DNA of 64,000 nt from NCBI GenBank assembly GCA_965238175.1, contig CBDEGZ010000003.1:1440001-1504000 (forward strand), written 5' to 3'. Shown piece by piece: positions 51,689 to 52,829 of this stretch; position 1 is the first letter of the stretch, and every line of letters starts with the position of its first letter. A model generated the notes under the pieces. The model was not told where the DNA came from and made no database searches. It was given only the letters and a program-made list of their open reading frames with translations. The DNA is from Gammaproteobacteria bacterium. GTDB lineage: Bacteria > Pseudomonadota > Gammaproteobacteria > CAJXQU01. The position numbers were made by a program, and so were the translations under genes.

Positions 51689-52206
51689 GTAACAATAGCG
51701 ATCTAAATGAATTAAAAAAAATACGAGAATTGAAATCTGAAAATCAGCAACAAGTTGTTAATCAGCTCGAACAGGAATTTCAAGAAAGAGGCACGGCGCT
51801 GAATTTGATTGATAGTACGATTGAAATGTTTAAACAAAAAAAAGTTACACTGGAAGCCGCACTTTTCACTGAAATTGAAGGAGAGGAGGTCGTTGGAGAT
51901 GAATTACATGAATATGCTGAAAAAATGAAAGAAATATCTGCTTACGGTGAAAAATTGGAAGATCAATATAGCGTTTTGCAAGAACAGCAAGTCATATCTG
52001 GGGATATGTTAAAAGAAGCACGAAATCACCTGGTAGAGTGTTGTAATGAAGTCGAGAAAATTAAACTTTTGATCGAAGAAGAACAGAAAAAAGATTCGAT
52101 TGCTAAATCCAGAAAAGAAGAAAATGAATTTGATGAAGAAGCATCTATGAAGTGGAACAGGAATCAAGTGAAACCTAAAGATCCTGAAAAAGGAAGAACA
52201 AAATGA
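51685..52206 (+). CDS. sctO: T3SS stalk SctO-like coiled-coil protein
   Basis: 173-aa coiled coil overlapping the sctN stop codon; L..IR.L at the N-terminus and EK.......EE.E.DE near the C-terminus. Confidence 0.75.
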
Positions 52207-52829
52207 GGGGGGTAGCATTATTAATTCTAATGGGACTGTTTATCCTTCCTTCAATGGTTCAAGGGTTAAATGCAGCGGAACTAAAATGGAAGCAAACGTA
52301 TTATTCTCATTATGCAGATGGTGAAACGTTGGAAACTGTGTTGCAGGATTTAATGTATAGCGAAAAAATTCCAGTAATAGTTAGTAACAAGATAGACGCT
52401 AATGTCAATCTTTATCTGGAAGGAACGTCACCTGTTGAAGTTTTTGATCGTTTATCTAAGACATACCAATTTGTTTGGTATTACGATAATCAGGCATTGT
52501 TTGTTTATGACGTTACAGAATTGATGAGTGCAACCCTCAAGCTTGATCATATTTCTAGTGGAGAGTTCACCGATATTGTAAAAGAAATGGGTATTTATGA
52601 TCAAAAATATGGTTGGGAATACGCCAATGATCGCGATGTAATTTATTTTACTGGGCCACCAAGGCTGGTAAATTTAGTTATGGAAATGTCTGAGGTGTAC
52701 GATATAGAAAAGCCAATGAATAAATCCCAGGTGGTAGTGTACAGATGGAAAGATAAAAGTGGTGTTTCAAACTTCAGTACAAGACCACCTGAGGACCCAT
52801 CACTTTATTACTCGATGCGTGAAGAATGA
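52203..52829 (+). CDS. Secretin N0-N1 domains only (SctC1/NolW-like) with DUF4124-like tail
   Basis: Signal peptide, W....Y...A....L..VL.D, WYYD..AL.VY, GPPR.V.LV, then VYRWKDKSGVSNFSTRPP and a stop; no beta-barrel secretin domain. Confidence 0.85.
   Translation: MRGVALLILMGLFILPSMVQGLNAAELKWKQTYYSHYADGETLETVLQDLMYSEKIPVIVSNKIDANVNLYLEGTSPVEVFDRLSKTYQFVWYYDNQALFVYDVTELMSATLKLDHISSGEFTDIVKEMGIYDQKYGWEYANDRDVIYFTGPPRLVNLVMEMSEVYDIEKPMNKSQVVVYRWKDKSGVSNFSTRPPEDPSLYYSMREE

Follow-up and report, generated by a model that had tools for sequence, protein, structure and literature searches.

Secretins are credited with having made an injectisome out of an inner-membrane export apparatus, which raises the question of what has become of a T3SS (type III secretion system) whose secretin lacks the part that forms the pore. 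Such a case is presented by a gene, here called sctC', at 52203-52829 in a stretch of 64,000 nucleotides from a gammaproteobacterial genome (GenBank assembly GCA_965238175.1, contig CBDEGZ010000003.1, positions 1,440,001 to 1,504,000 of the forward strand); this whole stretch is referred to as the window. An initial annotation had described the gene as a barrel-less secretin with YscC-type N0 and N1 domains fused to a DUF4124-like motif, and had proposed that it is one half of a split secretin that arose independently of the split known from rhizobia. Our analysis suggests that sctC' is probably a functional, exported, pore-less SctC belonging to a T3SS clade without a dedicated pore.

The reading frame 52203-52829 is open throughout on the + strand and encodes a protein of 208 aa, to which we assigned the following features.

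52203..52829, + strand: sctC', barrel-less SctC of 208 aa with signal peptide, N0, N1 and putative DUF4124 tail (open reading frame (ORF), Pfam, NCBIfam, AlphaFold2 model, Foldseek)
52203..52271, + strand: signal-peptide-like N-terminus, residues 1-23 (hydrophobic helix 3-18 in the AlphaFold2 model)
52314..52511, + strand: N0 domain, residues 38-103 (PF21304, T3S_SPI-1_N0, E 5.5e-7)
52530..52712, + strand: N1 domain, residues 110-170 (PF03958, Secretin_N, E 3.8e-8)
52734..52823, + strand: putative DUF4124 tail with three predicted strands, residues 178-207 (PF13511 at 178-196, relatives, tail profile, AlphaFold2 model)

In T3SS secretins N0 and N1 are the part seated on the inner-membrane ring of SctD, while it is the barrel of a full-length secretin that brings about oligomerisation and extends to the outer membrane. 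We found only the first of these in sctC'. The NCBIfam model TIGR02516 (SctC) is covered at positions 2-143 of 463 only (E 6.4e-31; 107.4 bits vs a cut-off of 238.45), and the Pfam scan of the 208-aa protein gave no match to the Secretin pore domain PF00263. A profile of the family compared with the PDB matched InvG over residues 1-170 at E 2.7e-30 and also matched MxiD and EscC. An AlphaFold2 model built from an alignment of 38 relatives reached a mean pLDDT of 90.8, and Foldseek laid its N0-N1 on the solved N0N1 structures of InvG, MxiD and EscC at an rmsd of 1.7-2.1 A. The signal peptide and an end of N0-N1 near GPPRLVNLV, both given in the initial annotation, were borne out: this motif is residues 151-159, inside the last N1 helix (153-166 in the model), and the N1 match runs to residue 170. 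The putative signal peptide is assigned from the model helix and from dN/dS. The absence of any remaining barrel was likewise confirmed, both by the lack of a PF00263 match and by the coordinates, which leave 63 bp between the stop of sctC' (ends 52829) and the ATG of sctD (52893). A complex prediction with three copies of residues 24-208, made from the 38-relative alignment and run without controls, scored 0.00 and is no evidence either way. The 208-aa protein is thus the N0-N1 part of a secretin of the non-flagellar T3SS (NF-T3SS) type, without the barrel.

What follows N1 is a tail whose motif VYRWKDKSGVSNFSTRPP (residues 179-196) lies at 52737-52790, ahead of the stop, exactly where the initial annotation had put it. 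Pfam places DUF4124 (PF13511) on residues 178-196 of sctC' (E 0.0027, 18.4 bits, profile positions 13-31 of 56). The match is below the cut-off in sctC' itself, but DUF4124 is found in 33 of the 38 aligned relatives (best E 2.9e-11), a set of rows selected for alignment through the tail, so that this count identifies the tail and is not an unbiased frequency. Less dependent on the choice of rows are two ESM Atlas clusters (56 and 61 members), in which N0 is present in 91% and 98% and DUF4124 in 50% and 72%. We refer to the genome of the window as G000 (3.35 Mb in 3 contigs, 97.7% complete), to a congener that carries sctC' as G002 and to further carriers as G106, G200, G288 and G358; the short forms of G106, G200 and G358 match DUF4124 at 31-35 bits, above the cut-off. 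Two relatives bear the NCBI name 'DUF4124 domain-containing protein'. As a test in reverse, the 11,172 genomic ORFs were searched with a profile built from 26 columns of the tail; four rows came back, one for sctC' and the rest for three of the genome's four other DUF4124 genes (E 1.3e-5, 0.0034 and 0.056). Y180, W182 and G187 are among just nine columns conserved at 90% or more in the 38-row alignment of short forms, which argues that the tail is more than chance. Judged by these sequence comparisons, the tail is at the level of the family a genuine DUF4124, and the initial annotation appears to have named it correctly. The model gives it strands at 178-183, 189-192 and 203-207 with pLDDT 88-96; the linker between N1 and tail is less confident and only about 8 residues long.

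A MAFFT alignment had suggested that the tail might have been left over from N3, from its first strand and hairpin. We rejected this; even with filters off, the tail profile found nothing at the place of N3 in 4 named and 13 unnamed full-length secretins or in the remaining short and partial forms. Each of the genome's four other DUF4124 genes has the module at the front, immediately behind the signal peptide and ahead of varied domains. One of them is fused to a lytic-transglycosylase-like domain, recognised by eye from its motif, a fusion that would fit a module directed to the cell wall. Outside subscription journals and supplements, our literature search found no paper that links DUF4124 to T3SS or describes an N0-N1-DUF4124 family.

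The fusion is kept in homologues. At E<=0.001 a phmmer search of 1.84 billion representatives returned 744 hits, of which those at the top, nearly all 176-281 aa long, aligned through residues 193-207; full-length secretins of about 600 aa appeared only from about E 1e-22. The nearest relatives of sctC' are therefore short forms with the same tail. The 38-row alignment used above consists of short forms that reach the tail and leaves out P0004 (which stops short of the tail), P0018 (truncated at the N-terminus), P0019, P0023 and P0045. Named relatives come from metagenome-assembled genomes of Gammaproteobacteria, Thiotrichales and Competibacteraceae, and family members are currently annotated as 'DUF4124 domain-containing protein' or 'GspD/PulD (secretin)'. 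In an evenly sampled class set of 400 scored genomes, 12 matched the family profile at E<=1e-10; 7 of the 12 were short open frames and 5 of these 7 matched through the tail (G000, G106, G288, G200 and G358, from the three genome families f1, f101 and f195). Dozens of 50%-identity clusters have the N0-N1-DUF4124 architecture. The gene order C'-D-E-small ORF-TPR-~200 aa-J (TPR, tetratricopeptide repeat) is common to G106, G200 and G358, and G002 has the same order minus the small ORF, which is missing between E and G in both G000 and G002. Between G000 and G002 we obtained a dN/dS of 0.113 for the whole of sctC', 0.049 for N0-N1, 0.88 for the signal-peptide region and 0.098 for the tail, the last value resting on just 5 non-synonymous and 8 synonymous differences. 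As part of the reading given above, and with the same probability, the short form would already have been present in the ancestor of a Ysc-like T3SS clade found in uncultured Gammaproteobacteria. Among the rows left out of the alignment, P0019, a 476-aa metagenome protein, has N0-N1, two DUF4124-like repeats and then a long extra C-terminal region.

If sctC' were half of a split secretin, as the initial annotation had it, the other half should be encoded elsewhere. We found six Secretin-domain genes in G000.

PilQ, in pilMNOPQ
GspD, adjoining gspG and gspH
second, orphan GspD of 741 aa (L011:8675-10900), beside transposase fragments
PilQ/MshL-like protein of 535 aa, in a pseudopilin cluster
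MshL-like protein of 577 aa, with its own ATPase and platform genes
mini-form of 289 aa with Secretin_N and partial Secretin (L014:9559-10428), adjoining a DUF7931 gene and purB

In G000 there is no secretin of the Tad/RhcC2 type, none of the six genes having PF13629 or a BON domain, and no full-length SctC, since TIGR02516 gave 7 matches in the genome with 0 above the cut-off. As positive controls, the same search recovered RhcC2 in pNGR234a and in a Bradyrhizobium plasmid, and a gene with PF13629 and Secretin was found in Paracoccus. The other carriers have 7 (G002), 3 (G106), 3 (G288), 2 (G200) and 2 (G358) Secretin matches; by type these are one PilQ and one GspD each in G200 and G358, and one PilQ and two GspD in G106. 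We considered the 289-aa mini-form and the orphan GspD as the missing half. The mini-form also occurs in G002 and has no match among the NCBIfam families; such Secretin matches are absent from G106, G200, G288 and G358, and neither is therefore a general partner. Because the genome holds no second half of either the SctC or the Tad/RhcC2 type, sctC' is a truncation and not one piece of a split gene, and on this point we depart from the initial annotation. The findings that the initial annotation had named as refuting it were not obtained: the tail matches DUF4124, the nearest homologues are short and no complete sctC is present in the genome. A protein of 1281 aa encoded near the orphan GspD (L011:2822-6667) contains an animal haem peroxidase domain (E 9e-136).

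The gene lies in a T3SS cluster with the following members.

47775..48191, + strand: STAS-domain gene, operon head (PF01740; homologues before sctV in G002, G200 and G106)
48284..50353, + strand: sctV (TIGR01399, 834 bits)
50354..51688, + strand: sctN (TIGR02546, 606 bits)
51685..52206, + strand: sctO (PF07321, YscO)
52893..54332, + strand: sctD of YscD type (TIGR02500 above cut-off; Pfam YscD domains and Y4YQ_C)
54310..54564, + strand: YscE-type co-chaperone gene (TIGR02501 above cut-off)
54554..54979, + strand: YscG/CdsG-like TPR chaperone gene (NF052304 CdsG, E 7.6e-10, below cut-off; kept in G002, G358, G200 and G106)
55005..55628, + strand: conserved 207-aa gene at the yscH/yscI position (no family match in Pfam or NCBIfam; homologues in the same place in G002, G200, G358 and G106)
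55914-56948: insertion sequence (IS) transposase inside the cluster (HTH_29 and rve, by Pfam)
58576..59214, - strand: LuxR-type response regulator (PF00196; homologue in the G358 cluster)
59211..63735, - strand: sctU, sctT, sctS, sctR, sctQ and sctL (Pfam, NCBIfam)
63719..64000, - strand: sctK, running past the window end, with sctJ next beyond (PF06578 YscK, PF01514 YscJ)

The order C-D-E-(F)-G-(H,I)-J-K-L is that of the Yersinia virC operon, and sctC' occupies the yscC position before yscD. Families of the YscE, YscG, YscK and YscO types are present, in agreement with the YscE/G-type chaperones first noted in the initial annotation, and the best named match of SctV is Yersinia LcrD. All T3SS core genes of the cluster are intact by Pfam and NCBIfam. 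The IS transposase has identical protein copies elsewhere in the genome, and identical Pfam profiles at L009:11201-12235 and L011:15196-16230 suggest further copies. It sits between two convergent genes, which in G002 are separated by 10 bp; this indicates that the insertion breaks no gene. The Y4YQ_C domain of SctD was considered as a marker of systems with truncated SctC and rejected, as it is found in Yersinia YscD as well. Flagellar fliL, M, N, O, P, R, flhB and flhA (L059:7439-15174) lie about 3 kb from the cluster, so that the two type III export systems are neighbours here. Just beyond the window, 1.6 kb without an ORF of at least 50 aa (L059:1319-2903, or G000:C3:1506319-1507903) contains a degraded copy of the C-terminus of an 81-aa gene and an apparent transposase fragment. 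A TGL family gene (protein-glutamine gamma-glutamyltransferase) flanks the T3SS cluster in G106 and G358 (L029:17934-19163 and L033:12360-13940), and none was seen in the window's own cluster.

Rhizobial Rhc systems also have a secretin reduced to N0-N1, NolW/RhcC1. It is possible, though we regard it as doubtful, that both short forms go back to one truncated ancestor, with Rhc later taking a Tad secretin and the carrier clade never doing so or losing it. The two are related over N0-N1. NolW compared with the sctC' protein by tblastn gave 24-27% identity with alignments out to residues 188-201, and both forms end in a conserved motif that closes in RP(P)E. The accessible part of one study describes an Rhc subgroup III with rhcC1 only (PMC3574062), and a NolW-like short form occurs in G085, a genome of the window's own class. 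With hhalign, however, the two families match at 99.9% over N0-N1 and the alignment stops at the N1 end with the tails unaligned; NolW has no DUF4124 match by Pfam or by the tail profile. NolW has a tail motif of its own, LFRGSS..R.G, invariant in 21 of 21 sequences and placed directly after N1, and homology of this tail to DUF4124 found no support from HMM or hhalign comparison. The invariant NolW residues L197, F198, R199, G200, S202, R207 and G209 may be a contact to RhcC2.

In an N0-N1 tree of 61 rows (41 DUF4124 forms, 3 Rhc-type and 17 full-length) 39 of the 41 DUF4124 forms make up a clade with support 95/88, and all 41 plus one full-length protein a clade with 84/94; NolW is placed elsewhere. 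Forcing all 44 short forms together costs 6.9 log-likelihood units, and the approximately unbiased (AU) test allows this joint tree, with p 0.241 for the careful tree and 0.855 for an earlier quick tree. A tree of SctV, made from 15 rows with the Hrp1, SPI-2, Chlamydiales and Myxococcales families left out, puts five carriers in one clade (85/83) and Rhc in a separate one (89/89) on a backbone without resolution. SctV of the window is 48% identical to Yersinia LcrD, 44% to that of a Rhizobium gallicum plasmid system and 38% to RhcV of NGR234, and the gene order is Ysc-like and not Rhc-like. It is therefore fairly probable that the truncation arose independently of Rhc NolW/RhcC1. The best N0-N1 tree, in separating NolW from the DUF4124 forms, leans towards the independence claimed in the initial annotation, and the AU test does not reject a single clade.

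Two further observations concern the spread of short forms. On the Rhizobium gallicum plasmid (514 kb), which has the second-closest named SctV, the family profile found no SctC-like N0-N1; no secretin search was made there. In G085 a 199-aa N0-N1 protein is encoded after sctD (L022:1501-2100) with a tail, SIVSGSS...RPGG, that is like that of NolW and not DUF4124, which indicates that Rhc-like short forms also exist outside rhizobia, in the class of the window.

How might a pore-less SctC work? By homology with InvG and MxiD, N0-N1 would assemble as a periplasmic neck ring on the C-terminal domains of SctD. The N3, secretin and S domains, which in other systems provide the outer-membrane pore, would be replaced by the small three-stranded DUF4124 module, which would come to lie immediately over N1, roughly level with the cell wall. 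In this place, standing in for the barrel, it may anchor or clamp the ring, either to peptidoglycan or to a partner in the envelope. We favour anchoring or clamping because the linker is short and another DUF4124 gene of the genome is fused to a lytic-transglycosylase-like domain.

The main rival to anchoring is the docking suggested in the initial annotation: the tail would be an adaptor that couples the N0-N1 ring to the secretin of another machine, such as PilQ or GspD, and the two machines would share its pore. No secretins other than PilQ and GspD are common to all six carriers checked, and in NolW, too, N1 is followed at once by a short invariant tail. TfpC, the one DUF4124 protein for which we found a study, supports type IV pili, a secretin-dependent machine, as far as the accessible part of that report goes (PMC7593972), and for Rhc systems it has been proposed that RhcC1 links up with a secretin of foreign origin, according to the portion available of another (PMC3459982). 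However, the part of the TfpC study at hand gives no demonstrated binding to PilQ (PMC7593972), the linker of about 8 residues places the tail well below the level of a secretin barrel, and the N0-N1 stacks of PilQ and GspD themselves would fill the same space. Docking is for these reasons unlikely. That sctC' is instead a leftover of sctC in a T3SS that is being lost is very improbable: an IS transposase lies in the cluster, a degraded gene copy and a fragment of a transposase are found close outside the window and sctC', searched for with its protein as query, was found in one of six congeners and not in the other five, but its dN/dS of 0.11 is not that of a decaying remnant, the same architecture recurs in at least three genome families and dozens of 50%-identity clusters, and the core genes are all intact with the IS between convergent genes.

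Returning to a functional SctC without a pore, several points weigh against it. All of the evidence is computational: domain make-up, conservation, purifying selection, synteny and the lack of a pore gene were computed, and ring assembly, from homology with InvG and MxiD, and whatever the tail binds are purely inferred. Secretins were checked in six carrier genomes only, with family typing in G000, G106, G200 and G358 and not for the 7 matches of G002 or the 3 of G288. By itself sctC' scores below the Pfam gathering cut-off for DUF4124 (18.4 vs 22 bits; 20 bits in the genome-wide scan). G000 gave no match to HrpJ/SctW (PF07201), to an SseC-type translocator (PF04888) or to T3SS_needle_F (PF09392), an absence of gatekeeper, translocon and needle that rests on one Pfam family each, and small fast-evolving T3SS proteins are easily missed. 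Finally, the system may still build a needle, which would need a route through the outer membrane.

We looked for such a needle among the small ORFs. No YscP was found in G000, the small ORFs gave no NCBIfam match at E<=1 beyond chance-level rows and none to a needle or rod family, and tblastn with one G106 small ORF gave no match. A three-sequence HMM of the small ORFs between E and G, scanned over the whole genome, found a homologue (E 8.2e-12; also by BLAST to G358 and G200) in a 74-aa ORF just beyond the window, after sctJ. By its position and family this ORF is a candidate SctF. Directly after it is encoded a 987-aa protein of collagen triple-helix repeats (PF01391, E 8.5e-96; G000:C3:1508326-1511289, or L059:3327-6290), flanked by two paralogous 81-aa ORFs, which have a DLTLKQLL motif in common with a small ORF of G200; the collagen-repeat protein could be a T3SS substrate or a fibre.

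Taken together, these data allow a broader reading, which we put forward only tentatively. A whole Ysc-derived clade, in Gammaproteobacteria that are free-living or uncultured, would have given up its own pore and kept the SctD-binding N0-N1 ring with a DUF4124 anchor, and its machine would either end in the periplasm or use DUF4124, then a general docking module, to dock to PilQ or GspD. If it ends in the periplasm, this would be a T3SS internal to the envelope, which either exports into the periplasm or assembles a structure there, a variant that shares in the same doubt. The carrier clade, itself from a secretin-bearing T3SS, would have dropped the pore, kept the connector ring under purifying selection and added a module. 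If this loss of the pore is real, truncation of SctC can precede the recruitment of a foreign secretin and need not follow from it, which would revise the account of RhcC1/RhcC2 as a partial homologous replacement. If confirmed, sctC' would offer a natural system for what a T3SS does without an outer-membrane channel, a first structural context for DUF4124, a domain widespread in Proteobacteria and so far tied only to maintenance of type IV pili, and a comparison case for the origin of the rhizobial RhcC1/RhcC2 pair. Any T3SS detector for which a secretin is obligatory would rate such systems as incomplete.

Among known systems we compared sctC' first with its full-length counterparts. With YscC, InvG, MxiD and EscC it shares the fold and sequence of N0-N1 and the gene position before yscD; it differs from them in having DUF4124 in place of the N3, secretin and S domains (about 400 residues). 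TfpC of Neisseria gonorrhoeae, for which the part of the report we could consult describes a periplasmic DUF4124 protein needed to keep type IV pili, is similarly tied to an envelope-spanning machine (PMC7593972). In TfpC, however, DUF4124 comes first, after the signal peptide, whereas in sctC' it is C-terminal and fused to secretin domains.

Other T3SS are known in which the secretin is reduced or missing. The NF-T3SS of Myxococcales are described, in the accessible text of Abby and Rocha, as basal in the tree and without a secretin (PMC3459982). Like the system in the window they are conserved, lack an outer-membrane channel and have neither an SctF nor a translocon that can be recognised, and in the same text they are proposed not to inject eukaryotes (PMC3459982). 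Compared by description and not by sequence, the two differ in that the secretin is absent altogether in Myxococcales while an N0-N1 piece is retained here. The N0-N1 piece of an NF-T3SS-type secretin that is retained here shows the loss to be secondary, the ancestor having had a secretin. Rhc subgroup III (Rhizobium etli type), reported by Gazi and colleagues in the section available to have rhcC1 only, resembles our system as a T3SS cluster in which only an N-terminal piece of secretin has been identified (PMC3574062). It is an Rhc-family system of Alphaproteobacteria, and the likeness is one of description.

The closest parallel is NolW/RhcC1 itself. Like sctC' it is an exported protein of about 210-235 aa that consists of only the N0-N1 of an NF-T3SS-type secretin, is encoded among T3SS core genes and has a conserved short tail after N1. 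The partner of NolW is the Tad-derived RhcC2, and Abby and Rocha, in the part of their paper at hand, explain RhcC1/RhcC2 as a partial homologous replacement (PMC3459982); no such partner is present in the genome of the window. The tails, LFRGSS..R.G in NolW and putatively DUF4124 in sctC', are unlike, as are the gene order and the affinity of SctV. What is new here is a pore-less SctC that resembles RhcC1 but has a DUF4124 tail and no partner secretin, and that defines an unstudied clade of T3SS.

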